Notes: generated by a model from the sequence alone, not told the origin. A stretch of DNA of 64,000 nucleotides from an uncultured Gammaproteobacteria bacterium (GCA_964425075.1 CAYRKM010000001.1:395060-459059), one strand, 5' to 3'; shown: positions 17,479-37,218, counted from the first letter of the stretch. Numbers and translations: made by a program.

Positions 17479-18729
17479 ATGACAAATTTAAATAAACAAA
17501 TTTTCTCAGTAATTGCAGCTGGAACTATGGTTCTTAACATAGCTACTCCTGCATTTGCTGGAACCACTATTGAACTTTCAGGAAATGGTACTGAATCTGA
17601 TAACAAGGCTATTGTTAACCAGAACAGTAACACAACTGTTACACAATCCAATGTAGCTGATATCAAAAATAATGTTGATATTAAATCTAACACTGGAGGT
17701 AATGATGCTAATAGCAACACCGGAGGAAACGTAAAAGTAGAAACTGGAGATGCTACTTCAAATGTTACCGTTAAAAACACCGTTAACAGCAATGCTGCTA
17801 ATGTTGATTGTTGTGATACAGGAGATACTAACGTTCTAATTAGTGGAAATGGTGAAGATTCAGATAACTTTGTTAAATTGAATCAGAACCACGACACTAC
17901 ATTAACTCAAAGAAATGAGGCTAATGTAGAAAATGATGTTGACGTAGATTCTAACACCGGAGATAACGACGCAGAAGATAATACAGGTGGAGATGTTTCT
18001 ATCGAAACTGGAGATGCTAATGCAACCGTTAAAGTTGGCACAACTGCTAACGCTAACTGGGCACGTATTGGTGGATCTTCAAACGGCGGATCTCTTACAG
18101 CTAGAATCACTGGAAACGGAGAAGACAGTGACAACAAAATCAAATTAAACAATGGTGGAGATGTCACTCTAACTCAATGGAACCTTGCTGATATCGAGAA
18201 TGACGTAGATGTTGATTCCGACACCGGATACAACGACGCAAATGACAACACCGGAGGAGATGTAATGATCGAAACTGGAGATGCTGACACTGATGTAACC
18301 GTAGATAATATGGTTAACTTCAATGCAGCAGATGTTAACTGCGGATGTCTTCTTGACGATGTACTCGCAAAGATCTCTGGAAACGGAGAAGACTCAGACA
18401 ACAAGATCATTGCTAACCTTGGTGGAGACACCACGGCTACACAAGCTAATGAACTTGATTGTGCAGGACATCACGACAGCTGTGCTGACGTTGACGTAGA
18501 CGGCGACACTGGACACAATGATGCAAACGATAATACAGGGGAAGTTGATGCTGACTCTGATCCAAGCATTGAAACCGGAGACGCTGACGCAACCGTAAAA
18601 GTAAACAACTCAGGAAACAGCAATGCTTTCGGAGTTGATATGGATGATTTGGACCTTCCAGATTTTGGAGGACTTCACTTCAGCTTTAGCTTTGACTTAG
18701 GAGATCTTCTTGATCTTTTAAACGGTTAA
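17479..18729 (+). CDS. Secreted tandem-repeat protein (4 x ~90-aa repeats), paralog family member A
   Basis: Strong SD gaggaggtg. Signal peptide ...ATPAFAG. Four repeats with SGNGEDSDN...TQ.N.A.I.NDVDVDS.TG.NDA.DNTGGDV.IETGDA and terminal CC/CxC motifs. Acidic C-terminus. Confidence 0.8.
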   Translation: MTNLNKQIFSVIAAGTMVLNIATPAFAGTTIELSGNGTESDNKAIVNQNSNTTVTQSNVADIKNNVDIKSNTGGNDANSNTGGNVKVETGDATSNVTVKNTVNSNAANVDCCDTGDTNVLISGNGEDSDNFVKLNQNHDTTLTQRNEANVENDVDVDSNTGDNDAEDNTGGDVSIETGDANATVKVGTTANANWARIGGSSNGGSLTARITGNGEDSDNKIKLNNGGDVTLTQWNLADIENDVDVDSDTGYNDANDNTGGDVMIETGDADTDVTVDNMVNFNAADVNCGCLLDDVLAKISGNGEDSDNKIIANLGGDTTATQANELDCAGHHDSCADVDVDGDTGHNDANDNTGEVDADSDPSIETGDADATVKVNNSGNSNAFGVDMDDLDLPDFGGLHFSFSFDLGDLLDLLNG

Positions 18730-18824: not shown

Positions 18825-21047
18825 ATGAATAACAAAAAAACAAGAAAATTACTGTCCACAGTATTAATACTAGTTATATTTTCAGCAAAACTTGCTTTTC
18901 CAATTGGTGCTTTAGCTCTTGATGCTCCAACTGCGCCGAGTGCACCTACTGCTCCAAGCGCTCCATCTGCTCCAACTGCGCCGAGTGCACCTACTGCTCC
19001 AAGCGCTCCATCTGCTCCAACTGCGCCAACTTCTCCCCCAGCACCTACTGCGCCAGTTGCTCCAACTGCGCCGAGTGCACCTACATTAGTAACTCCAACA
19101 CCAACACCCACAGAGACTACACAGGCGCAGCAACAATCAGCACCAAAAGAAAGCAGCAATGATATTCAAAACCAAGAAAATGAATCAAATACACAAGGTG
19201 GAAATGTGGGGGATACAACAATTGACACGGGAGATGCTACAAGTAACGGTACAATTTCAAATGTAGGAAATACAAATACAGCCTCAACTCCTGGAGGAAG
19301 TGGTGGAGGAGCCACAGTTGTAAATAGCGGAAATGGGGAGGACTCAACAAACACTGGAGCAGTAATAAGTTCAGATACTTCAACCACTAACCAGACTAAT
19401 TCAGCAACTATTAATAACACAATGAATCAAGGAGCAACAAGCGGAAATAACATTTCTGATAGTAATGTTGGAAATACAACCATTAATACTGGGGATTCAA
19501 ACACTAGCGGAACTATTATTAATGCAGTGAATACAAATGTTGATGGAATTGCAGTTGCCGAGTTCAATGTAGTAGATGATCATATTGGGGACATAATTCT
19601 CGACTTCGGAAATTCAAATTGTATCGCAGGATGCGGAGGAGAAACAGCAGTTATTAATACTGGAAATGGGGAGGACTCAACCAATACTGGAACTGTTGAC
19701 TCTACAACTACAGATAACACTTTCCAAACTAACACAGCAGGAATTGTAAATGACATGATTCTTGATTCTAACGCTGGAGACAATTCAGCATCTCACAATA
19801 CGGGTGGAGACAGCATTATAACAACGGGCGATGCTAATACGGCAGCAAATGTAATGAATTTGGTTAACAATAATATTGCAGGGAATGTGATATTGGGAGT
19901 CGTTAATATATTCGGAGACCTTATTGGAGATATCATTTTGCCAGAAAATCCATTTGCAAATTGTTCAACTTGTGTTGCAAATAACACAACAGTCGCAAAT
20001 ACAGGAAATGGCGAAGGTTCTACAAATGAAGCTACATTTACTAGCACCACAAATGATGGAACATTTCAATACAATGACGCAAGCATTCAGAATAACATAA
20101 TAAGCGATGCTAATTCAGGAGATAATTCAGCAAGCAAGAATACTGGAGGCAGTAGCAATATCGAAACTGGAGATACTAATACTGAGGTAGGAATATTGAA
20201 TATCGCAAACATGAATCTTGCGGGTGGGGATTGGTGGTTAGTAATCGTAAACGAAGCAGGACAATGGATCGGAAAGATATTGGGTGGAGACGGAAGCAAC
20301 GTAGCAGGTTCTAATGGACTTGAATTTATAGTAGATCCACTTACTGGGGCAGTAACAGCAAAGAATTCAGGAAATGGTGAAGGCTCAACCAACACAGCAG
20401 CAGTTAACCAGACAAACAATTCAACAACCAACCAAAGCAACACTGCAGCAATTACAAATAATCTTGACCTATCTGCTAATACCGGTGGAAACAGTACTAG
20501 TCACAACACTGGTGGTAACAACTCAATAGTAACTGGGGATGCTCACATAATCGCAAACATAGTTAACTTTGTTAACAATAATATAACTGGCAATGGTAGG
20601 CTCTTTGTAACAGTAGTGAATGTATTTGGAAGTTGGATGGGAGATTTGGTAACTCCTGGACAACATAAGGAAACAGCATCTGCACAAAATGGAGTAGGTG
20701 GATCAAACGGCTCAAATAATTCAACATCAACAGTTCAAGGTTCATTCGGAAGTTCGTCTAGCCTTGTTCAAGCAGAGAATGTGCTTTCACAAATCACAGG
20801 AAACGGCAACAATAACACTCTTGCATACGGAAGCGTTCAGGGTACAAACGACTCAAAACCACAAAATGATGCTACTGTTGCAAGCGTAGGGCAAGACGAC
20901 TCTGCGGCAGTAGCAGATAAGAATATCAATATTAATTTAGCATGGTTCCTTCTCTTAATTCCAGGGATGGGATTTGTGCTACTCGCAAAAAAATCGTTTG
21001 CTCCAGTTTCAAGCCTGGCGCTAAGAGGTATACATTTGTTTCTTTAA
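18825..21047 (+). CDS. Secreted tandem-repeat protein with PT/PS-rich linker, paralog B
   Basis: Signal peptide. (APTAPSAPS)n linker. Repeats contain NTGNGEDSTN, NTGGxSxIxTGDxNT and IFGDLIGDIILPE segments. C-terminal hydrophobic segment + KK. Confidence 0.8.
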   Translation: MNNKKTRKLLSTVLILVIFSAKLAFPIGALALDAPTAPSAPTAPSAPSAPTAPSAPTAPSAPSAPTAPTSPPAPTAPVAPTAPSAPTLVTPTPTPTETTQAQQQSAPKESSNDIQNQENESNTQGGNVGDTTIDTGDATSNGTISNVGNTNTASTPGGSGGGATVVNSGNGEDSTNTGAVISSDTSTTNQTNSATINNTMNQGATSGNNISDSNVGNTTINTGDSNTSGTIINAVNTNVDGIAVAEFNVVDDHIGDIILDFGNSNCIAGCGGETAVINTGNGEDSTNTGTVDSTTTDNTFQTNTAGIVNDMILDSNAGDNSASHNTGGDSIITTGDANTAANVMNLVNNNIAGNVILGVVNIFGDLIGDIILPENPFANCSTCVANNTTVANTGNGEGSTNEATFTSTTNDGTFQYNDASIQNNIISDANSGDNSASKNTGGSSNIETGDTNTEVGILNIANMNLAGGDWWLVIVNEAGQWIGKILGGDGSNVAGSNGLEFIVDPLTGAVTAKNSGNGEGSTNTAAVNQTNNSTTNQSNTAAITNNLDLSANTGGNSTSHNTGGNNSIVTGDAHIIANIVNFVNNNITGNGRLFVTVVNVFGSWMGDLVTPGQHKETASAQNGVGGSNGSNNSTSTVQGSFGSSSSLVQAENVLSQITGNGNNNTLAYGSVQGTNDSKPQNDATVASVGQDDSAAVADKNININLAWFLLLIPGMGFVLLAKKSFAPVSSLALRGIHLFL
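18925..19085 (+). repeat. 45-bp tandem repeat (2 perfect + 1-2 degenerate copies) encoding the PT-linker
   Basis: gctccaactgcgccgagtgcacctactgctccaagcgctccatct is repeated head-to-tail. Confidence 0.85.
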
Positions 21048-21051
21048 AATC

Positions 21052-22173
21052 ATGTTTAAGAAGGCAGTAATGTTCATAATCTGCCTGCCCATAGTTCACT
21101 TCGCACTTGCATTTCAAGTTAGAGCAGAAGAGATTAACCTTTCCGTTACTGGTAATGGTGAGGGTTCGTCAAATGCTACACAAGTTCAGAATAATACTAC
21201 TACGACAGTTACCCAAACCAACACAGCGGATATAAATAATAATGTAAATACGAATACTAACACTGGAGGAAATAATGCAACTGATAATAACGGAAATGCT
21301 TCAATTCAAACAGGCGATTCGACAACTTCTACTACTATTAATAATGAAAATATCAATTCAAATTCAGCAAATATTAATCCATGCTGCAATGGTAATTCTG
21401 TAAATATTGAGATTTCAGGAAATGGTAGTGATTCCAACAATTTAGTTAATGCTTCAAATAATAATACAAACAACATCTACCAAACTAACTACGCAAATAT
21501 CTACAACAACGCAATGACAAATTCTAACACCGGATACAACAGCGCAGACAGCAATATTGGAAATGTATACATAAAGACTGGAAATATTTCAGCAACTACA
21601 AAAATCAATAACAAAAATATTAATAATAGCTATGCTGCAGGAGGTAGCGTTGATTCCTCTTTTTATGCTGTTATAAAAAATAATGGAGAAGATTCTGAGA
21701 ACAAAATTATTTTCAACAAGGATAATGAAAATAATCTAATTGTTACAAATATTGCAAACATATCAAATAATGTAGAGCACAATTTGAATACTGGATACAA
21801 TAGTGCAAATGGAAATTTGGGTGACGTTGCAATAATTACAGGAGATATTACAAGCGATGTTGAAATCAATAATGAAAATATAAATAGTAGTACTGCAATT
21901 CTTCCATGCTTAACATGCGAAAAACCAGAAGATCCTGAAACTCCACCTACTAACCCACCAAGCACACCACCTACATCAGTTGGTGGTGGAGGTGGTGGTG
22001 ATGGAAGATCAGACGGTAGGTCTGATGGAAAAGGTGGTTCGGTATTGGGTGCTATGTTGCCTGCAACAGGACTTCCTTTTATGTTCTACGCTACGCTTCT
22101 TCTCTTCTTCCTTTTCCTCTCAGGTATCTTTCTGCGTTATCACTCCGGAGTTTCTCCTCCAGTTGTAGCTTAG
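21052..22173 (+). CDS. Secreted repeat protein with C-terminal LPATG sortase sorting signal, paralog C
   Basis: Signal peptide. SGNGEGSSN/NTGGNNA...IQTGDST repeats and CC/CxxC motifs. C-terminus LPATG + hydrophobic stretch + RYHSG basic tail. Confidence 0.8.
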   Translation: MFKKAVMFIICLPIVHFALAFQVRAEEINLSVTGNGEGSSNATQVQNNTTTTVTQTNTADINNNVNTNTNTGGNNATDNNGNASIQTGDSTTSTTINNENINSNSANINPCCNGNSVNIEISGNGSDSNNLVNASNNNTNNIYQTNYANIYNNAMTNSNTGYNSADSNIGNVYIKTGNISATTKINNKNINNSYAAGGSVDSSFYAVIKNNGEDSENKIIFNKDNENNLIVTNIANISNNVEHNLNTGYNSANGNLGDVAIITGDITSDVEINNENINSSTAILPCLTCEKPEDPETPPTNPPSTPPTSVGGGGGGDGRSDGRSDGKGGSVLGAMLPATGLPFMFYATLLLFFLFLSGIFLRYHSGVSPPVVA

Positions 22174-22183
22174 TATTTTAAAC

Positions 22184-22212
22184 CAAAGCCCCGCTAAGCG
22201 GGGTTTTTTCTT
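22184..22212 (+). terminator. Rho-independent terminator
   Basis: aaagccccgcTAAgcggggtttttt directly after the stop of 21052..22173. Confidence 0.8.
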
Positions 22213-22226
22213 GGTTTAAGCATAGT

Positions 22227-22255
22227 TGCATTATGTTTGTTTCGTGTTTAATATA
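22227..22255 (+). promoter_or_regulatory. Sigma70-like promoter for the sortase gene
   Basis: TTGCAT(17)TAATAT. Confidence 0.4.
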
Positions 22256-22294
22256 CCTTTATGAAGAAGCAAGGCTTGTTCACAATCAGAGATT

Positions 22295-22852
22295 ATGAGT
22301 AGAAAACTTCAGAGAAATATCGGCAACGCTCTAATGGCGTTTTCTTTTTTAGGTTTGGTATTAATTTATTACCCAATAGCAAAAGAATATTTATTTCCTC
22401 CTACTTATACCCAAGAGGAGAAGAAAAGTCTTGGATTTTCTGTCGAAATTCCATCAATTAATGTTTTTTCAAAAGTAATCGAAAATGTAGACCCTTTCAA
22501 TCAGGCAGAATACATAGAGTCCCTTAAGGACGGAGTAGCACATGCGAAAGGCACTTCTTTGCCTGGTGAAAAAGGAACTATATATCTTTTTGCTCACTCC
22601 TCGGACGTACCATGGAGAATTACAAGATATAACACTGCATTTTTTAAATTAGGACAGGTGAAAAATGGGGAGGAAATACTAATTCAACACAAAGGCAGGG
22701 AGTATAAATATAAAGTGTTTACTCAAAAAACAGTTTGGCCAAGCGAAGTTAAATACCTAACTGAGTCTCAAGGTGACGTATTAATTCTTCAAACCTGTAC
22801 ACCAGTAGGAACTTCCTTTAAAAGACTTCTTGTATTTGCAAAACCCCTCTAG
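22295..22852 (+). CDS. Sortase-family transpeptidase
   Basis: N-terminal TM anchor. Candidate catalytic His in IYLFAHS. Active-site motif LILQTCTP (TLxTC). Conserved Arg in FKRLLVFA. Confidence 0.8.
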   Translation: MSRKLQRNIGNALMAFSFLGLVLIYYPIAKEYLFPPTYTQEEKKSLGFSVEIPSINVFSKVIENVDPFNQAEYIESLKDGVAHAKGTSLPGEKGTIYLFAHSSDVPWRITRYNTAFFKLGQVKNGEEILIQHKGREYKYKVFTQKTVWPSEVKYLTESQGDVLILQTCTPVGTSFKRLLVFAKPL

Positions 22853-22896
22853 GTGTGGCGGGGGCGGACGAGCCGCCCCCATGCGCCCTTACGGGT

Positions 22897-23136
22897 TCAT
22901 TCTTGTTGTGGGTAAAATAACCTCCTTACTATGTTGAAGAGCCCGTTGAAAATCGAGATAACGATCATGATGGGCGTGCCAACATAGATAAGTATCCCAA
23001 TCCCGACGTGCTCTTTCGTAGTGGCTACAGGATGGCGGCGAAACCGCTCCCTCGTGTACTCGCTGAATGCATCTGGGATCATCAAGCAGAGTGTGATGAT
23101 TCCCCACACTGCCAAGATGATAATCAAGATTTCCAC
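22897..23136 (-). CDS. Small two-TM membrane protein, hypothetical (GTG start)
   Basis: SD GGGAGGAGGG lies 6 nt upstream of the GTG. Two hydrophobic helices. Confidence 0.5.
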   Translation of the reverse strand: MEILIIILAVWGIITLCLMIPDAFSEYTRERFRRHPVATTKEHVGIGILIYVGTPIMIVISIFNGLFNIVRRLFYPQQE

Positions 23137-23157
23137 CGGTGTCCCTCCTCCCAGAGG

Positions 23158-23175
23158 TGAATGGGTCCCGCCTCG
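23158..23175. repeat. 18-bp direct repeat copy 1 (gaatgggtcccgcctcgc) in the 5'UTR of the 2-TM gene
   Basis: Identical 18-mer also at 23445-23462. It lies 20-30 nt upstream of the SD of the minus-strand gene. Confidence 0.8.
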
Positions 23176-23206
23176 CGGCGAGACCTGCTGCGTGATGGGG
23201 TGCTGA

Positions 23207-23425
23207 CTACCGTCGGGATCTACGAGACTTTTTCTTTTTGGCGACTCGTCGTCGGAAGATCAGACAGTACGTCTCCAGACCTTTTGACGGTTTCTGTTTG
23301 GTCGGCGCAAACCCAACGAATTCCCAGCCTCCGTAGTGGGCCATTCCATCCAAATGGTCTTTGAGAAGGGCAGTCGCCCTCCATGAATCTGCACTGACTT
23401 CCTGAAGCTTGTGCTCGTATTTCAT
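23207..23425 (-). CDS. DUF4177-like small protein
   Basis: MKYEHK...GGWEFVGFAPT...YCLIFRRR resembles the DUF4177 consensus (KWEY...GWELV...YLKRP). SD GAAGGAG lies 7 nt upstream. Confidence 0.45.
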   Translation of the reverse strand: MKYEHKLQEVSADSWRATALLKDHLDGMAHYGGWEFVGFAPTKQKPSKGLETYCLIFRRRVAKKKKSRRSRR

Positions 23426-23444
23426 CGAATGCTCCTTCGAGGCG

Positions 23445-23462
23445 AATGGGTCCCGCCTCGCA
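23445..23462. repeat. 18-bp direct repeat copy 2 in the 5'UTR of the DUF4177 gene
   Basis: Identical to 23158-23175. Confidence 0.8.
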
Positions 23463-23488
23463 GCAGGACTGGCCGAGTTGTATTCTGA

Positions 23489-23656
23489 CTAGTCGTTCGG
23501 GTTGTCAAACCTTTTTCTTCTGGTGGAAGATTTTGGGTTTGACTCTCCGCGTATCTTCCTTGCTTCCTGAACAATCCCCTGAGCATGCTCAACAATGTTG
23601 GCAATGCTCTCGAGGATTCCGCCTATTCGACGGCACATTCTCACAAACCTATCCAT
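23489..23656 (-). CDS. 55-aa hypothetical small protein (helical, basic C-terminus)
   Basis: Manual translation gives MDRFVRMCRRIGGILESIANIVEHAQGIVQEARKIRGESNPKSSTRRKRFDNPND. SD AAAGGAG lies 6 nt upstream. Not in the ORF track (<60 aa). Confidence 0.35.
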   Translation of the reverse strand: MDRFVRMCRRIGGILESIANIVEHAQGIVQEARKIRGESNPKSSTRRKRFDNPND

Positions 23657-23945
23657 CGTTTCTCCTTTTTTTGAGTTTTGTCCCGCGCAATCCCGATCTT
23701 ATCGGAACTCTGCGGGGCAAAACTCTTCCACCTTCGCTAAAGCTATGGCGGATAAACAAGAATGAATTGTAAAGGTGCGTACTTTTTTGTTTAATCTGGT
23801 GAATTTAAGCACGTTAAAAACTATCAATCAAACTGAAAAGTGGATGGATTATATAGGAAAATGGATCCAAAATCAAAACTATAAGTTTAAAAACACAAAA
23901 AACCCCTCCAAATTGGAAGGGCTTTTTGTATCAACTAGAAAGAAA

Positions 23946-24539
23946 CTAGTTTGAGTTTGTTGAACCTGTAACATTTACAGTTGTAGTGGTTGTATTGTCA
24001 TCAGTATTGATGTCATTAGCGCCACCAACGTTACCGTTAGCATTATTGCCCCCAGTGTTTTGAACTGTTGTTACGTTTGTGCTAACAATTGTGGTATTTT
24101 TTTGCTTCACAATGTTTTTGCAAAGATCGATTACCAAAGCTCCATTAACTGAGCCAGCACCATTGTGATGTATGTCAACCGTTGTTTCGCCTTGTCCATC
24201 ACAACAACAGCTTTCTGCTGTGTTGGTATTGGTTCCACCTGCAACAGTCACATTTGTTGTTGTCGTATTTTTACCTGTAGTAATGGTATTTCCGCCACCA
24301 ACGTTACCGTTAGCATTATTGCCCCCAGTGTTTTGAACTGTTGTTACGTTTGTGCTAACAATTGTGGTATTTTTTTGCTTCACTTTCGATTTAGAAAGCT
24401 TTACAATAAGCGCTCCGTTGACTGAGCCAGCACCATTATTATTGATTTCAATTGGTGCAGCGAATGCTGTCGGGACTACCAAAGCCGCCATCATTGTTCC
24501 AGTTGCGATAGCTGTTGTAATTTTGTATTTAATATTCAT
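23946..24539 (-). CDS. Secreted repeat protein (2 internal repeats), paralog D
   Basis: SD aaggaggtga. Signal peptide ...VVPTAFAAP. Duplicated NNGAGSVNGAL..KQKNTTIVSTNVTTVQNTGGNNANGNVGG unit. CCCDGQ motif. Confidence 0.75.
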   Translation of the reverse strand: MNIKYKITTAIATGTMMAALVVPTAFAAPIEINNNGAGSVNGALIVKLSKSKVKQKNTTIVSTNVTTVQNTGGNNANGNVGGGNTITTGKNTTTTNVTVAGGTNTNTAESCCCDGQGETTVDIHHNGAGSVNGALVIDLCKNIVKQKNTTIVSTNVTTVQNTGGNNANGNVGGANDINTDDNTTTTTVNVTGSTNSN

Positions 24540-24604
24540 TTTTTTTATTCACCTCCTTTCAAGCTAAGATATCTCCGATTTACGTTTCGGCAAACGTACT
24601 AAAA

Positions 24605-25456
24605 CTATGCTTCACAGAAAGATTCTGCTTCAGCGTTACAATAATCATTGTCTGCGCCTCCGTTGGCATCATCTGTTCCTCCATCACCTTTTAGTGAATC
24701 AGAACCTACTCCTCCAAAAAGATGGTCGCTTCCAGAAGCTCCTTTAATAGAGTCGCTTCCATTCTCGCCATACAACCAATCGTTTCCTTCATTTCCCTGA
24801 ATAGCATCACTACCATTTCCACCGAGAACTACATCATTACCGCCTTGTCCGTGTATGGCATCACTTCCATTTCCTCCTACAATACAATCATTGCCTCCCT
24901 TACCGTTAATGACGTCACTTCCTCCTTTTCCAAGGATTAAGTCAGGACCGCTAGTACCATTTAGTACTTCACTTGCTTCTGTTCCTTCAATGACGTTGTA
25001 TTCAACTTCATCATCACATTGCTCAGGAATGTTTGAAGGAGGCGTTGCCTCAATCTCATCCGCTGATCCGGCAGGCATTGTAAAGGTTGAACAATTACCA
25101 TCAGTTGTTCCGCTGATAGATCCATCGTTTGCTATTGTTCCATTACCATTTAATGTATAGCCGAAGTTTGCACCGGTATAAACAAGAGCAAAGGTAATAC
25201 TGCTTCCATCTATTGTGCCGTCAATATCCCATGTGTATGAAGCATCTGCGTCAAAATCACCTGTTCCGGCAAACACTCCGTTTACGTCCTGAGAAACCGT
25301 ATTGAGAGTGTGAGCATAGTCAGACCCTCCGCAATTAAAAACTATAGCTTTCGGTGCTGTTAATTCCCAGTTTGGGGCTGCGAATGCTGGCATTGCAACA
25401 TTTCCAAAAAGAAGAGCTGCTGCAGCTCCTGTCGTTAAAATTTTTTTTATATTCAT
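24605..25456 (-). CDS. Secreted protein with RTX-type calcium-binding beta-roll repeats
   Basis: SD gagggggtga. Signal peptide MNIKKILTTGAAAALLFGNVAMPAFAAP. Multiple GGxGxD nonapeptides (GGNGSDAIHGQGGNDVVLGGNGSDAIQG...). Confidence 0.75.
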   Translation of the reverse strand: MNIKKILTTGAAAALLFGNVAMPAFAAPNWELTAPKAIVFNCGGSDYAHTLNTVSQDVNGVFAGTGDFDADASYTWDIDGTIDGSSITFALVYTGANFGYTLNGNGTIANDGSISGTTDGNCSTFTMPAGSADEIEATPPSNIPEQCDDEVEYNVIEGTEASEVLNGTSGPDLILGKGGSDVINGKGGNDCIVGGNGSDAIHGQGGNDVVLGGNGSDAIQGNEGNDWLYGENGSDSIKGASGSDHLFGGVGSDSLKGDGGTDDANGGADNDYCNAEAESFCEA

Positions 25457-25865
25457 TTTTTTCACCCCCTCTCGTGTAAAATCGCCCTGCCATTCCATAT
25501 GAACTTTCTAAGCATTTACTGCATCAATGCAGGCACAAAAAAACAACCATATCGGTTGTTTAGCAATTTGTGTTGTATAAAAATTTCATAGGCAGGTTCA
25601 TGTTTTTTCTCCTGCCTCTTCTCGCGAAAGCTCAAATTAGGCAGGTTAAATTAGCTACTGCCCTTTATCTAAAAGAAGATTTAGGCAGATTCAAATAAAA
25701 AAATAAGGAATAACGCTTAAGTGGGCAAGAATGAATACTTAGCAATTAACAGAGTATTGTATTAGTAGTTTTATTAAAAAAACGTTGATGTGTCAAGGTA
25801 AGCAAAATGGATACATTTGGATTAAAAAGTGTCAATATTCTTTTCACGGTTTTAGAGTGGTTAGC

Positions 25866-30147: not shown

Positions 30148-32574
30148 ATGAAAAAAATTTCAAAGTCGTTTCAGATAAACGGTAAAACATTAACTTTTGA
30201 AACTGGTTCTTTGGCACAGCTTGCTACTTCTAGCGTGCTTGCAAAGATGGGGGACACTACAGTTCTTGCAACTGTTACCATGGGTCGAAACGACACTACT
30301 TTAGATTATTTTCCATTATCAGTTGACTACGTTGAGCGACTTTATGCTGGAGGAAAAATCAAAGGTTCACGTTGGGTAAAACGTGAAGGACGTCCTAGCG
30401 ACGACGCAGTTTTGACTGGAAGGTTAATTGACCGCTCCATTCGACCAATGTTTCCAAAGGCTCTTAAAAAGGATGTTCAGGTAATAGTAACTGTTCTATC
30501 AATTGATGGAATTAATGATCCTGCAATTCTATCCTTAAATGCAGTGTCGGCTGCACTTGCGATTTCAAAGATTCCATGGAATGGACCTGTTGCAGCTGTA
30601 AGAGTGGGAGACTTAAAGGCTGTTTCCACTGATGATTTGGTAATTTTCCCTGATGTAAATGAAGAATTAGATTTGGACTTTATATTAACTTCAAGTAGCA
30701 ACGGTAGCACCATTATGGTTGAGGCTGGTGCAAATCAGGTAAGCGAAGAGATTGCACTTAAGGCTGTAACTTTGGCGCGGGAAAATAATATAAAAATTAT
30801 TGAATTTATAAACGAGTTAGTAAAAGAAGTAGGAGAGAAGAAAATTGAACTTGCAGTAGATGAGGCAAAAGAAGAAATAATTGCGCTTGTAGAAAAGTCT
30901 TATAAGGATAAAATTACAGCAGTTCTTGAAGGTGAGTTGGGAGAAAATGTATCGGGCGACCTTCAGAAAATCGCAGACAGCATTATTGAACTTGAAGGCG
31001 AAAATGCTGACAGAAAGAAAATCTTTGATGCAGTTGACTATGTATTTAAGAAAATAATTCGTGAAAGAATTGTAAATGAAGAGAAAAGATTCGATGGGCG
31101 AAAGATTGATGAATTAAGAGAAATTACTGCACAGGCAGGATATATTCCACGCGTTCATGGTTCTGGTCTTTTCTCTCGTGGTCAAACCCAAGTACTTTCC
31201 ATTGCAACACTTGCTTCAACTGCATTAGGACAACTTATTGAAACATTGGATGGTGAGGAAACAAGTCTTTATATGCATCATTATTCTTTCCCACCATACT
31301 CGGTTGGAGAAACAGGAAGAATAGGCTCTCCTTCTAGAAGAGAGATTGGACATGGAGCGCTTGCTGAGCGTGCAATTGAGGCAGTTTTACCATCAGTTGA
31401 AGAATTCCCATATGCAATTAGGGTAGTGTCAGAGGTTTTGTCTTCAAATGGTTCAACATCAATGGCTTCAACTTGTGGCTCCACTCTTGCTCTTATGGAT
31501 GCGGGTGTTCCCATAAAGTCACCAGTTGCAGGAATTGCAATTGGACTAATGACTCTAAATGGTAAATACAAAATTTTAACTGACATAATTGGGCTTGAAG
31601 ATTTTGCAGGGGATATGGATTTTAAAGTTGCAGGAACTAAAGACGGAATTACTGCAATTCAACTAGACGTTAAATTAGATGCACTAACTGACGACATGAT
31701 AAAGGAAGTTTTTGACCGTGCAAAGAAAGCAAGACTAGATATTCTAAAGGTTATGAATAAAGCAATTGCTGAATCAAGAAAAGAGGTAAGCGTTTATGCT
31801 CCAAAGATTAAAATGATAAAAATCGATCCTGAAAAAATTGGTGGACTTATAGGTCCTGGAGGAAAGATGATAAAGAGTATTATTGCCCAAACCGGAGCAG
31901 AGGTTAATGTAGAAGATGATGGTTCGGTAAGTATCTCAGCGGTGGACGAGGAAGCAGTACAGAAAGCTACAGAATGGATTGAGGGACTTACTCATGACGT
32001 TACACCAGGTGAAACATATGACGGAACGGTGAAGAGACTTTTGGCATTTGGGGCATTTGTCGAATTCCTTCCCGGAAAAGAAGGAATGGTGCATGTAAGT
32101 GAAATGGCGACAGATTATGTAAAAGATCCCGCTGATGTTGTGCAGATTGGACAAACTGTAAAAGTAAGAGTAAAAGAAATTGATGATCAAGGAAGAGTAA
32201 ATCTTTCAATGCTTTTTGGAGAAGACGCAGAAAAGGGTGGAAATAAAGGTTCAGCTGGCGGAGGAGACCGCGGCCCACGAAGAGAAAGTGGACCTCGTTC
32301 ATATGGGGGCTCTCAAGATAGGGGACCAAGACGTGAAGGACCAGGCGGGGGAAGAAGTTTTGGTGGAGGCGGATTTAGCGGTGGAAGAAGTAGCAGTGGA
32401 CCCAGAAGAGATTTTGGAGGAGGTAGTAATCGTACTTCAGGAAGTTTTAGCGGTGGCGGACGTTCTTCAGGTGGGTTTGGTGGACCAAGAAGAAGTAGTG
32501 GTGGTCCAAGAAGATCTTCAACTGCTAATGCTCCAACATACCAAGGCGGCAAACGTGATGAGTGGAGAGGCTAA
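30148..32574 (+). CDS. pnp: Polyribonucleotide nucleotidyltransferase (PNPase) with ~110-aa RGG/SGG-rich C-terminal tail
   Basis: Two RNase PH domains, KH domain and S1 domain, followed by GGDRGPRRE.../RSFGGGGFSGGRSS low-complexity extension. Confidence 0.9.
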   Translation: MKKISKSFQINGKTLTFETGSLAQLATSSVLAKMGDTTVLATVTMGRNDTTLDYFPLSVDYVERLYAGGKIKGSRWVKREGRPSDDAVLTGRLIDRSIRPMFPKALKKDVQVIVTVLSIDGINDPAILSLNAVSAALAISKIPWNGPVAAVRVGDLKAVSTDDLVIFPDVNEELDLDFILTSSSNGSTIMVEAGANQVSEEIALKAVTLARENNIKIIEFINELVKEVGEKKIELAVDEAKEEIIALVEKSYKDKITAVLEGELGENVSGDLQKIADSIIELEGENADRKKIFDAVDYVFKKIIRERIVNEEKRFDGRKIDELREITAQAGYIPRVHGSGLFSRGQTQVLSIATLASTALGQLIETLDGEETSLYMHHYSFPPYSVGETGRIGSPSRREIGHGALAERAIEAVLPSVEEFPYAIRVVSEVLSSNGSTSMASTCGSTLALMDAGVPIKSPVAGIAIGLMTLNGKYKILTDIIGLEDFAGDMDFKVAGTKDGITAIQLDVKLDALTDDMIKEVFDRAKKARLDILKVMNKAIAESRKEVSVYAPKIKMIKIDPEKIGGLIGPGGKMIKSIIAQTGAEVNVEDDGSVSISAVDEEAVQKATEWIEGLTHDVTPGETYDGTVKRLLAFGAFVEFLPGKEGMVHVSEMATDYVKDPADVVQIGQTVKVRVKEIDDQGRVNLSMLFGEDAEKGGNKGSAGGGDRGPRRESGPRSYGGSQDRGPRREGPGGGRSFGGGGFSGGRSSSGPRRDFGGGSNRTSGSFSGGGRSSGGFGGPRRSSGGPRRSSTANAPTYQGGKRDEWRG

Positions 32575-32576
32575 AT

Positions 32577-33401
32577 CTAGAGTAATTCTACGGCTTTCTC
32601 CATAACTCGATTGAATTTTTTATTAAAATCCCGAATTGCATCCCAATATGGTTCTCTTGTTTCCTGATTCATAATAAAACCCCTATTGTATTCTACTTGA
32701 ATTGCATAAACTGTATTTCCATGGTTAAGGTTAGGATTTCCAAAATATTGAGTGATATGACCGCCTTTATATGAGGTATTGATCTCAATTTCGGAAGTTT
32801 TTAATCCAAACTCGGAGGCTATAAAGTTTCTCACACTCTGAATAAATTCAGCCGGAGAGGCATTGAATCCAATTGTAGGATCTATGTCTCCCGTGTGAGG
32901 TAGTCCAAAGTTTGACAATATAAATTTTGGCATAGTTCTTGTTTCATTAGGTAAAAAACGGTCACGTTTTCCGGTATTTTTATCATAATCTCCCGTGTCG
33001 TGATGGTCCCAAAGGATCACTTTTTCAAATCCAAATTCCTTCGAAGCAGCAATCAGGTTTTTGATTTCCTCATAATATGGATCGTGATGGGTTGAGAGCC
33101 AGAACTCTTTCTCCTCATCAGTTAAGTTTTGTCCGTCTTTCCAAATTTGATTTCCATGAAAGTCCTGAAGCTTAAAAAGGTTCTTATCACGGGGTTGATT
33201 TAGACTCCCCAGTCCACGGATTACTTTTGACTTCAAATTTCCCAATGCATGGGGATGAAAAGCAGTATCTGCAGTGAATTTATCACTAAATTCACCTATG
33301 AACCATTCATCCAATGCCACTCTATCAATAAGATGGGCAAAGTCATCAGAGTCATGCGGCGCGGAAGTTATAAGAGGTAGCTTCATATCCAGATTATACA
33401 A
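32577..33401 (-). CDS. Putative metal-dependent hydrolase, N-formylglutamate-amidohydrolase-like (tentative)
   Basis: His/Asp-rich motifs (SAPHDSDD, WDHHDTGDYD, LPHTGDID). Family assignment is by eye only. Confidence 0.3.
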   Translation of the reverse strand: MYNLDMKLPLITSAPHDSDDFAHLIDRVALDEWFIGEFSDKFTADTAFHPHALGNLKSKVIRGLGSLNQPRDKNLFKLQDFHGNQIWKDGQNLTDEEKEFWLSTHHDPYYEEIKNLIAASKEFGFEKVILWDHHDTGDYDKNTGKRDRFLPNETRTMPKFILSNFGLPHTGDIDPTIGFNASPAEFIQSVRNFIASEFGLKTSEIEINTSYKGGHITQYFGNPNLNHGNTVYAIQVEYNRGFIMNQETREPYWDAIRDFNKKFNRVMEKAVELL

Positions 33402-36274: not shown

Positions 36275-37218
36275 TATTCTCTTCCCTCATAGATCTCTTT
36301 TTTTACGAATTCATATAGTTTGGCTGCTTTTTCCTGGCCAATAAATTCGACATACCCTTCCAAAAACTCTTCTCTACCCCTAGTAAACTGTTCACCAGCA
36401 ACAGCTAGTAATTCTGTCAATTTGATTCCACCGTACATGATTCTTATTTGAGTGGATGAAGGTCTAGGTTTGTTTCTTGTTTGTGTTAGTTCAAAACCCG
36501 AAGAACTTTCTTGTTGAGCAACATATTGATTTAGTTTCTCAGTTTTAAAAATAGACTGAAGTTGTCTTTCGTCTTCAATTTCTAAAACTTGCATTACTTC
36601 CCTTTCAAGACTATTTAATCGAGGGTCTATTGCGCGATGAACAAATTCATGGACAATATTTTGTTTTGCCTTGTCTTGTTCCAAAAAGGATTGTCCAAGT
36701 GATTTTTTATTAAAAAATATTAATCCACTAGAATTATCTGCGGACCTACAATAAAGTCCTCCTTTATTTTTCATTTGGGGAGTTCTTAGGTCCCAATCTG
36801 CCAAGGAAACAGCAAGCGGCAGAAGTCTTCCACTTGTTTCTCTTGGTTGATAAAAAAATGGAGGAAGCACATCAAGAGCTTTGGACAACGCTTTGATGCG
36901 AGGCGCATCCCAGTGGACCCTATGATTTTTTGTAAACTCTATGCTGTCATTTGTACTCGTAAAACTTAAATTTGTATCTGGAGATATTAATATTATTCCA
37001 TATTTGTTTTCAACTTCAGTTTTCATTTGATCAGCATCCATTCCAAAAGTGCCGGTTTCTAATCCTTCTACAAGACCTCTGCTAATAGAGGGTCTGTTGG
37101 TATGAGCATTTATAACATCTATTCCCGTAAGACCACCTACTATAATTCCTCCCACTGCGCTTAAAAAACGCCTTCTACTCATTGTTGATGTTGTGTATTT
37201 TGGGGCCTCTTCTGACAT
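36271..37218 (-). CDS. Tat-signal secreted HExxH zinc metallopeptidase-like protein
   Basis: Twin-arginine motif SRRRFLSAVGG followed by a hydrophobic region. HEFVH zinc-binding motif. Confidence 0.5.
   Translation of the reverse strand: MSEEAPKYTTSTMSRRRFLSAVGGIIVGGLTGIDVINAHTNRPSISRGLVEGLETGTFGMDADQMKTEVENKYGIILISPDTNLSFTSTNDSIEFTKNHRVHWDAPRIKALSKALDVLPPFFYQPRETSGRLLPLAVSLADWDLRTPQMKNKGGLYCRSADNSSGLIFFNKKSLGQSFLEQDKAKQNIVHEFVHRAIDPRLNSLEREVMQVLEIEDERQLQSIFKTEKLNQYVAQQESSSGFELTQTRNKPRPSSTQIRIMYGGIKLTELLAVAGEQFTRGREEFLEGYVEFIGQEKAAKLYEFVKKEIYEGREY

Follow-up and report, generated by a model that had tools for sequence, protein, structure and literature searches.

Two copies of an 18-bp repeat in a small operon

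In the 64-kb window (the whole stretch of DNA that was analyzed), an 18-bp sequence, GAATGGGTCCCGCCTCGC on the plus strand, occurs as two exact copies, at 23159–23176 and 23444–23461, one at each internal junction of a predicted three-gene operon. This repeat is real and non-random. It forms the invariant core of a longer, imperfectly palindromic block, and collinear similarities around it show that the modules of about 95 nt at both junctions derive from a single ancestor. We tentatively favor the view, without giving it quite even chances, that the core acts in cis on the polycistronic mRNA, as a stem-loop or as a recognition site.

The first copy (GCGAGGCGGGACCCATTC in the mRNA sense) lies in the spacer between the ORFs of 72 and 79 aa, and the second lies in the spacer between the ORFs of 55 and 72 aa; each spacer precedes a minus-strand ORF, in agreement with a sequence-only reading of this DNA, which had placed the copies upstream of two consecutive minus-strand genes. 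That reading had also correctly reported an 18-bp repeat in two copies, but its coordinates were one base off at each copy, and the gap of 20–30 nt that it gave between the repeat and the SD was too long. Read in the mRNA sense, the distance from the end of the 18-mer is 6 nt to the SD at both copies and 22 or 18 nt to the start codon.

No third copy was detected in the 64-kb window, even when 3 mismatches were allowed, and 100 dinucleotide shuffles gave a chance expectation of 0.00 matches for the 18-mer. Sequencing error, which had been raised as a possible source of the repeat, does not account for it: the Logan assembly of run SRR14271365 (contig L007, 5021 bp) carries both copies and is 100% identical to positions 19029–24049 of the window, and because this identity extends across the region, both copies and both junctions of the surrounding island are reproduced.

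Searches of larger collections returned 6 exact matches to the 18-mer in the GTDB species representatives (185,579), 12 in the JGI metagenomes and 0 in IMG/VR; a degenerate pattern for the full hairpin gave 1 match in IMG/VR, which was attributed to chance. All of the GTDB and JGI matches were single-copy, with unrelated flanks, and lay in GC-rich, mostly coding DNA. No similarity to the proteins of the island was found around them, and none of the 185,579 GTDB species representatives carried the 18-mer more than once. Since these matches fit what chance would give for an 18-mer in such volumes of sequence, we take the motif to be confined to this island and not to form a common repeat family; the idea of a common genome-wide motif is contradicted by the presence of two copies in 64 kb and of single chance matches elsewhere.

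Extent of the repeated sequence

The 18-mer is embedded in a 32-nt ungapped block on the minus strand, which reads GGTCTCGCC-GCGA-GGCGGGACC-CATTCACCTC at 23154–23185 and AGTCCTGCT-GCGA-GGCGGGACC-CATTCGCCTC at 23439–23470. The two copies of the block are identical at 27 of 32 positions, and all five differences are transitions. The block is an imperfect palindrome with 9-4-9 dyad symmetry, of which the 18-mer is the invariant core. It is sharply bounded, the identity beyond it in the same register being at background level, and both copies are extragenic, lying within intercistronic spacers of 70 nt and 63 nt.

When gaps were allowed, collinear homology extended over about 95 nt and comprised, in order, an A-rich 9-mer (AAGAAAAAG), TAG-TCAG, a spacer, the 32-nt block and the SD. 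In module copy 1 (23143–23236, minus strand), AAGAAAAAG at 23228–23236 is followed by 18 nt, TAGTCAG at 23203–23209, a further 17 nt, the 32-nt block and the SD GGGAGGAGGG at 23143–23152. In module copy 2 (23432–23519, minus strand), AAGAAAAAG at 23511–23519 is followed by 19 nt, TAGTCAG at 23485–23491, a further 14 nt, the 32-nt block and the SD AAGGAG at 23432–23437. The 9-mer, TAGTCAG and the core are collinear and have nearly equal spacing in both modules, and on the gene strand TAGTCAG and the 9-mer were found in the window only at these two places. TAGTCAG includes a stop codon, that of the 72-aa ORF in module copy 1 and that of the 55-aa ORF in copy 2. Since the two ORFs read the 9-mer in different frames, what has been conserved is its nucleotide sequence and not a protein sequence.

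On the upstream-ORF side, the alignment of the flanks without the core was reached by 6 of 1000 shuffles; downstream of the block, the shuffle test detected no significant homology. Within the 126 aligned columns, a perfect 18-nt run has a probability of P = 0.005–0.05 at 60–70% identity. An nhmmer profile of the module found no third copy in the window. The modules occupy both internal junctions of the three-gene operon, and the bodies of the ORFs are unrelated to one another. A small duplication had been among the origins proposed for the repeat, and of the three proposals it is the nearest to the data; judging by the collinear blocks, a duplication did take place, but it was more extended than supposed and involved the junction module of about 95 nt.

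The GC-rich island and its genes

The operon lies on the minus strand of a foreign, GC-rich island of about 0.9 kb (22853–23770), with a GC content of 0.47–0.575 (about 0.52) compared with 0.375 for the window. The island is the only long GC-rich stretch in the 64 kb, and composition changes abruptly at both of its edges. GC3 is 0.52–0.62 in the island ORFs and 0.24–0.31 in the neighboring host genes. On the left, the island adjoins a sortase gene (plus strand, stop at 22852), and on the right the terminator of a 197-aa gene (minus strand, hairpin at 23895–23929); the immediate neighbors are a sortase and repeat-rich surface-type proteins. All of the island ORFs are co-oriented on the minus strand and have a strong SD 5–6 nt before the start. 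Among the host genes in the window, 3 of 39 have an SD-like motif, and many have a TATAAT box 6–10 nt before the ATG, a location that suggests leaderless mRNAs. Because both its composition and its translation signals differ from those of the host, we regard the island as foreign.

Among promoter-like sites, the best candidate for driving the operon (TTGATT-17-TATAAT, 10/12; 23848–23876, minus strand) is situated in AT-rich DNA just downstream of the neighboring gene's terminator, and the promoter scan gave a weaker site at 23766–23793 on the same strand. No tRNA or tmRNA was found as an integration target. Transposon ends were considered and rejected; the 12-nt inverted repeat on the left lies inside the GC-rich boundary, and the 10-nt repeat AAAACCCCTC is at chance level. 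The DNA of the island had no match among phages (blastn, tblastn) or plasmids (blastn), and no locus corresponding to it was found in IMG/VR. Exact look-ups of the flanking genes returned only the same strain, in two sister runs, the second contig ending before the island. No variant without the DUF4177 gene was found in these data, which are thin.

ORF 1 (23489–23656, minus strand) encodes 55 aa and has the SD AAAGGAG 5 nt upstream. It is modeled as a single long helix (residues 2–36) followed by a disordered basic tail, and protein searches identified it as an orphan, with matches only to its own entry and to the Logan contig of the same run. ORF 3 (22897–23136, minus strand) encodes 79 aa with two hydrophobic segments (2-TM); it begins with GTG behind the SD GGGAGGAGGG and has coding-like codon-position GC values of 0.44/0.34/0.62. 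No close relatives of the three ORFs were found in large protein collections, phage records or IMG/VR, and no PHROG, NCBIfam or PADLOC families were found for the island proteins. ORFs 1–3 are credible and co-oriented and make up the predicted three-gene operon on the minus strand. The island itself is the more unusual feature of this region, being a highly structured, SD-dependent micro-operon of orphans in a mostly SD-less host.

ORF 2 (23207–23425, minus strand) encodes a 72-aa protein that ends in an Arg/Lys-rich C-terminal tail (FRRRVAKKKKSRRSRR) and that had been described as DUF4177-like from the sequence alone. Against DUF4177 (PF13783) it scored 14.0 bits (E = 0.059), with a match to the C-terminal half of the model only and below the Pfam cutoff of 25 bits. 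The description nevertheless gained support from three sides. ORF 2 and the published DUF4177 protein PEG 446 (PMC11322243) align end to end, with 28% identity in 69 aa and a pairwise E of 9e-6; its single-sequence AF2 model (pLDDT 70) had a beta-alpha-beta-beta order, which is the reported DUF4177 topology; and its top fold match in BFVD was a DUF4177 protein (E = 9e-3, TM 0.60). Each of these is weak, and they are suggestive of a DUF4177-like protein. An exhaustive HMMER scan gave one marginal match that carried no information, and comparison of the modeled fold with PDB structures was likewise uninformative. In B. subtilis, the small DUF4177 protein YjzH was recovered in a screen of the RNA-binding proteome (bioRxiv 10.1101/2025.03.21.644579).

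Predicted folding of the mRNA

In the mRNA sense, the palindromic block can form a hairpin, A, with a GCGA (GNRA) tetraloop in both copies. Hairpin A of copy 1 (23164–23185; GGUCUCGCC-GCGA-GGCGGGACC) has 9 bp and a predicted energy of −18.3 kcal/mol, and its pair probability in context is about 1. The corresponding hairpin of copy 2 (23450–23469; GUCCUGCU-GCGA-GGCGGGAC) has 8 bp, with 2 G·U pairs, and −13.2 kcal/mol. In its 5′ arm, hairpin A has four differences between the copies, and three of them are exchanges of C and U opposite a G, with which pairing is kept only in the mRNA (minus) sense. In context, copy 2 is predicted to form a different hairpin, B, instead (23438–23460, probability about 1), consisting of CGAGGCG-loop-CGCCUCG with −12.4 kcal/mol, or −17.4 kcal/mol when extended into the SD. 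On the 3′ side of the 18-mer, the copies differ solely at 23158/23443 (T/C), and this change is compatible with hairpin B in the antisense strand only. A single structure conserved in both copies is, according to these models, possible rather than demonstrated.

The local folds of the spacers were not better than those of shuffles (z = −1.2 and −1.3). Masking of the SD by the element was also considered and dropped. The predicted probability of being unpaired is 0.97 for the SD of the first cistron and about 0.42 for each of the two SDs that follow the element, and scrambling of the 32-nt block left the predicted SD accessibility unchanged (0.46 vs 0.38±0.11 and 0.42 vs 0.49±0.14).

Two further hairpins were predicted in the island. 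In the 5′ leader before ORF 1, a hairpin of −32.2 kcal/mol (23673–23725, minus strand; z = −5.1) contains GCGGGAC at 23680–23686, in its descending arm and 23 nt before the start codon. This heptamer occurs three times in the 64 kb, in the leader hairpin and in the two repeat copies, always on the gene strand. Directly 3′ of ORF 3, a GC-only hairpin without a U-run (GGGGGCGG/CCGCCCCC; 22859–22881, minus strand) lies where the GC-rich island begins on the left, 1–7 nt past the sortase stop codon. The island as a whole folds in the mRNA sense with z = −8.4 (20 shuffles) or −7.4 (40 shuffles) and in the antisense direction with z = −4.0 to −4.75; host controls gave −3.0 and +0.5. The excess in the mRNA sense comes mostly from the leader with the 55-aa ORF and from 22880–23000. 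That the island is one large structured non-coding RNA is disfavored, because the three ORFs with ideal SDs, one of them with family-level similarity, argue for a structured mRNA.

Promoter, terminator and attachment-site signals

Reading the element as a promoter, an intrinsic terminator or an attachment site finds no support in its sequence. A promoter element had been proposed, and the promoter scan found no sigma-70-like −35/−10 at either copy; the module of copy 2 contains a TTGACA that lacks an acceptable −10 and has no counterpart in copy 1. No U-run follows hairpin A, the sequence at this position being CATTCACCTCTGGG or CATTCGCCTCGAAG; no TTTTT occurs in the island in the mRNA sense, and the terminator scan detected only the host terminator at 23904–23921. 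Nor was boxA (CGCTCTT or GCTCTTTA) found in the island, and no known RNA family or ribozyme was recognized: at gathering thresholds the window had 0 Rfam matches, and at E ≤ 5 none overlapped either spacer.

Another proposal, that the copies are remnants of attachment sites flanking the DUF4177 gene, fits the data poorly. The attC consensus RYYYAAC/GTTRRRY is absent from both strands of either spacer, its only two matches lying inside ORFs, at 23317 and 23593, and no recombinase was seen among the immediate neighbors of the island. The homology is not confined to the 18-mer: it extends well past it toward the upstream ORF and, in the direction of the SD, takes in nucleotides of the 32-nt block. 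The DNA between the copies matches the remainder of the island in composition.

Possible roles of the repeat

The junction module was duplicated, and its copies now occupy the two internal junctions of an operon of three genes that is SD-dependent and was acquired horizontally. In the scheme that we tentatively prefer, the core would have been kept intact through its action in cis on the polycistronic mRNA. Each spacer is predicted to fold into a stable GC-rich stem-loop around the 18-mer, which would end 6 nt before the SD. Intercistronic stem-loops typically serve as barriers or processing points for neighboring cistrons or as sequence-specific binding sites. Here, the stem-loops may act as barriers or processing points that influence the relative stability and expression of the neighboring cistrons; alternatively, they could provide a sequence-specific binding site for small proteins that the operon itself encodes and that carry Arg/Lys-rich tails. 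The binding of Arg-rich peptides to GNRA-type hairpins is a known mode of recognition, as in lambda N/boxB.

We counted the wobble-compatible changes in the mRNA sense and the third GCGGGAC hairpin before gene 1 in favor of a role at the RNA level. The discrete collinear blocks with unalignable spacers between them also form the pattern that would be expected of constrained sites in an old duplication. The uneven conservation and the all-transition pattern are suggestive, but indecisive with two copies. Because there are only two copies and no relatives were found, covariation and purifying selection lend the RNA role no support, and against it stands the prediction that the copies fold differently in context, as A in copy 1 and as B in copy 2. 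If the element is functional, a tiny acquired operon would bring its own SDs and intercistronic stem-loops into a mostly SD-less host, and it would be a simple system in which to study how small proteins with basic tails, among them a DUF4177-like one, recognize RNA.

A possible alternative, doubtful in itself and yet nearly as likely as the RNA role, is that the repeat is a neutral relic: a junction would have been duplicated at operon assembly, and the functionless 18-mer would not yet have decayed. In a variant of this explanation, template switching or gene conversion would later have carried a patch of about 32 nt from one spacer into the other, and a fairly recent small patch copy could also produce the all-transition pattern and the 18-nt run. 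A relic is consistent with a repeat that is limited to two copies and private to one island, as well as with the lack of a common in-context fold, of local structure above background and of an effect on SD accessibility. At the block identity of 27/32, moreover, an 18-nt run is unremarkable, and since the genes are orphans, selection on the genes themselves is uncertain. At flank-level identity, however, such a run has P = 0.005–0.05, and a relic does not readily explain the occurrence of discrete, conserved collinear blocks between unalignable spacers, the wobble-compatible changes in hairpin A or the presence of a third GCGGGAC hairpin in the corresponding place ahead of gene 1. If the repeat is a relic, it records only the assembly of the island through gene-junction duplication. 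In both cases the feature is local, with two copies in a single uncultivated genome, and has no bearing on a general open question.

The arrangement of the island as hairpin-ORF-hairpin-ORF-hairpin-ORF-hairpin brings to mind a recombination module, in which the repeated modules would be cassette boundaries for swapping small ORFs and the DUF4177 gene a 285-bp cassette. We consider this improbable. The ORF bodies are indeed unrelated and share a common module of 3′ tail, stop and spacer in different frames, the island is foreign DNA composed of orphan ORFs, a perfect 18-bp direct repeat 285 bp apart could in principle support deletion or circle formation, and the PeSL cassettes of T4-type phages provide a precedent (PMC2839356). 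However, the spacers contain no attC cores, a recombinase is missing among the immediate neighbors, no third copy flanks the operon and no multi-copy motif was found in other genomes or metagenomes. In addition, the inter-copy segment does not differ in composition from the rest of the island, and the data, thin as they are, gave neither a variant without the DUF4177 gene nor evidence of ORF exchange. By analogy with the phage elements, and with slightly lower probability again, the module might be the boundary of a promoter-less, integrase-less plug-in cassette that both regulates and shuffles orphan ORFs, its GNRA hairpin perhaps being bound by an Arg-rich protein. If true, this would make it a bacterial counterpart of the phage PeSL that supplies SD signals to genes landing in a mostly SD-less host.

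A DNA-level operator or internal promoter, with the duplex 18-mer controlling separate transcripts for the 72-aa and 79-aa genes, is quite unlikely. The 9-4-9 dyad and the 18-nt exact core would suit a sequence-specific binder, and the island proteins have basic tails. An operator had been one of the earlier suggestions, but as a dimeric operator the element is a poor fit: only one half-site is conserved, the arms being Watson–Crick paired at 8/9 and 6/9 positions, and the changes in the other arm make sense only as G·U pairs in RNA. The absence of a sigma-70-like −35/−10 from both copies weighs against separate transcripts, as does the location of the sites in spacers of 63 and 70 nt between tightly packed, co-oriented genes, and neither of the soluble island proteins is modeled as a known DNA-binding fold.

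A function of the plus strand is very unlikely, whether through real proteins from the ORFs that begin with MGPAS at the two copies (23161–23364 and 23446–23772) or through an antisense RNA pairing with both leaders via the 18-mer. GAGG-N3-ATG is present on the plus strand at both copies, the difference in hairpin B is wobble-compatible in the plus sense, and the antisense strand is more structured than shuffles (z = −4.0 to −4.75). Nevertheless, the MGPAS ORFs have flat codon-position GC, are rich in Cys, Trp and Ser and are not protein-like; they fully overlap, in antisense, SD-led ORFs, one of which has family-level similarity, and their copies differ at second codon positions (RRD vs QQD; R/Q), all of which bears out their earlier dismissal as spurious. 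Furthermore, no promoter-like site was found on the plus strand in 22600–24100. Finally, it is barely credible that the island or one repeat copy is a chimeric or collapsed product of assembly, as might be suspected from the abrupt composition change at both edges and from the origin of the data in one sample series, because the independent Logan assembly is 100% identical over both junctions and both copies, whose clearly different flanks show that neither is a collapse or duplication error.

Comparison with known systems

The element is, in kind, a short intercistronic palindromic element, but it is of no described family. It resembles integron attC sites in that imperfect palindromes of similar size follow small promoterless ORFs in a co-oriented foreign array. 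It differs from them in having no RYYYAAC/GTTRRRY pair in the spacers and no integrase among the immediate neighbors, and also in the long exact core that its two copies share; to our knowledge, unrelated attC sites share no long exact core. The stoperators of cluster A mycobacteriophages are 13-bp repressor sites that occur in about 20–35 copies per phage genome together with a cognate repressor gene. Like them, the 18-mer is a short, asymmetric, exact motif that lies in short intergenic gaps, follows the direction of transcription and is placed near gene starts and stops; unlike them, it has two copies and no repressor homologue.

The boxB hairpin of lambda nut is recognized by the arginine-rich motif of protein N. 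The likeness here consists of a small GC stem with a GNRA-type loop, two copies in the transcript and nearby small proteins with Arg-rich segments. In contrast to nut, the island has no boxA and no protein similar to N, and the hairpin lies between cistrons instead of just after the promoter; the GNRA hairpin is not the predicted fold of copy 2, and protein binding is conjectural in the present case.

The PeSL cassettes of T4-type phages contain a strong sigma-70 early promoter and a functional terminator stem-loop and are present many times per genome (Arbiol et al. 2010, PMC2839356). They bracket small orphan ORFs in direct orientation, and recombination between them can excise or replace single ORFs (PMC2839356). 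Compared with PeSLs, the present element has no promoter consensus and no T-run, is limited to two copies, and neither a phage context nor phage homologues were found for it. It shares with them the arrangement in which direct repeats containing a stem-loop bracket a small ORFan, here the 72-aa ORF, in a set of three ORFs that are all without close relatives.

REP/BIME palindromes stabilize mRNA between genes, for example between malE and malF in E. coli, and REPs, which are associated with RAYT transposases, number from dozens to hundreds in a genome. The element described here differs from REP/BIME sequences in that its two copies both lie in a 0.9-kb island and its module extends into the upstream coding sequence. 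Like them, it is a GC-rich imperfect palindrome of about 30 nt that can form a stable stem-loop without a U-run, which is extragenic and lies in a fixed orientation between co-transcribed genes.

Folding of the island transcript

The island, the GC-rich foreign segment at 22853–23770 with its operon on the minus strand, was predicted to fold far beyond its dinucleotide shuffles in the minus, that is, the mRNA sense (z = −8.4 and −7.4). The corresponding values were −4.0 to −4.75 for the island antisense, and −3.0 and +0.5 for host controls that were matched to the island in length. The sequence TTTTT was absent throughout the mRNA sense of the island. The leader of the 55-aa ORF contained a near-perfect 53-nt hairpin (23673–23725; −32.2 kcal/mol, z = −5.1), which was followed downstream by an A-rich tract and then by an open Shine-Dalgarno (SD) sequence, and which matched no Rfam family. 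Rfam searches at gathering thresholds gave zero matches across the 64-kb window, and no tRNA or tmRNA gene was found anywhere in it; nusA and rpoB were nevertheless present.

Translation starts and gene calls

Among the host genes, i.e., the genes of the window lying outside the island, an SD-like motif was located no farther than 20 nt from the start codon in only 3 of 39 across the whole window, and a TATAAT-like box was observed 6–10 nt before the ATG in many, such as those starting at 37218(−), 44277(+), 45033(+), 51404(+) and 61950(−). Given this proximity of the boxes to the ATG, the sequence suggests that leaderless mRNAs are widespread in the host. A perfect GGAGGTGA marked the exceptions among the host starts, at 17479(+) and at the 197-aa gene (23946–24539, minus strand). 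In the Logan contig SRR14271365_28040 (L007/L008), the 55-aa ORF was the sole island ORF called by the gene caller of the public collection. The caller overlooked the 72-aa and 79-aa ORFs, which explains why neither appears in the protein collections despite the presence of the contig itself.

Genomic surroundings and ends of the island

The sortase gene is flanked by a cluster (18825–22173 and 23946–25498) encoding repeat-rich, Asn/Thr/Gly-rich surface-type proteins with hydrophobic anchors at the C-terminus. The cluster includes an RTX-type calcium-binding repeat protein, a member with an N-terminal tract rich in Pro, Ala, Ser and Thr (GC 0.52 near 18.9 kb), and the 197-aa gene, which carries an internal duplication (23964–24049 versus 24237–24322, 80% identical). 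A second short GC-rich patch (32201–32600, approximately 400 nt, GC 0.50–0.52) lies inside an 808-aa ORF (30148–32574).

The 10-mer AAAACCCCTC occurs on both sides of the island, at the end of the sortase ORF directly before it (22840–22849) and, on the other side, within the stem of the neighboring bidirectional terminator (23899–23908). This pair could be the target-site duplication of an insertion of approximately 1.05 kb; a 10-nt repeat of this kind is at chance level for the region. Close to both island ends we also found a perfect 12-nt inverted repeat (22896–22907 and 23755–23766; arms TTCATTCTTGTT and AACAAGAATGAA), for which the chance expectation in the region is about 0.05–0.1, and which may thus be a coincidence. 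In the minimum free energy structure of the island in mRNA sense, the repeat forms the helix that closes the entire transcript, and the 79-aa ORF has its stop codon within the 3′ arm. This predicted closing helix resembles the 5′–3′ fold-back pairing of hok-type toxin mRNAs.
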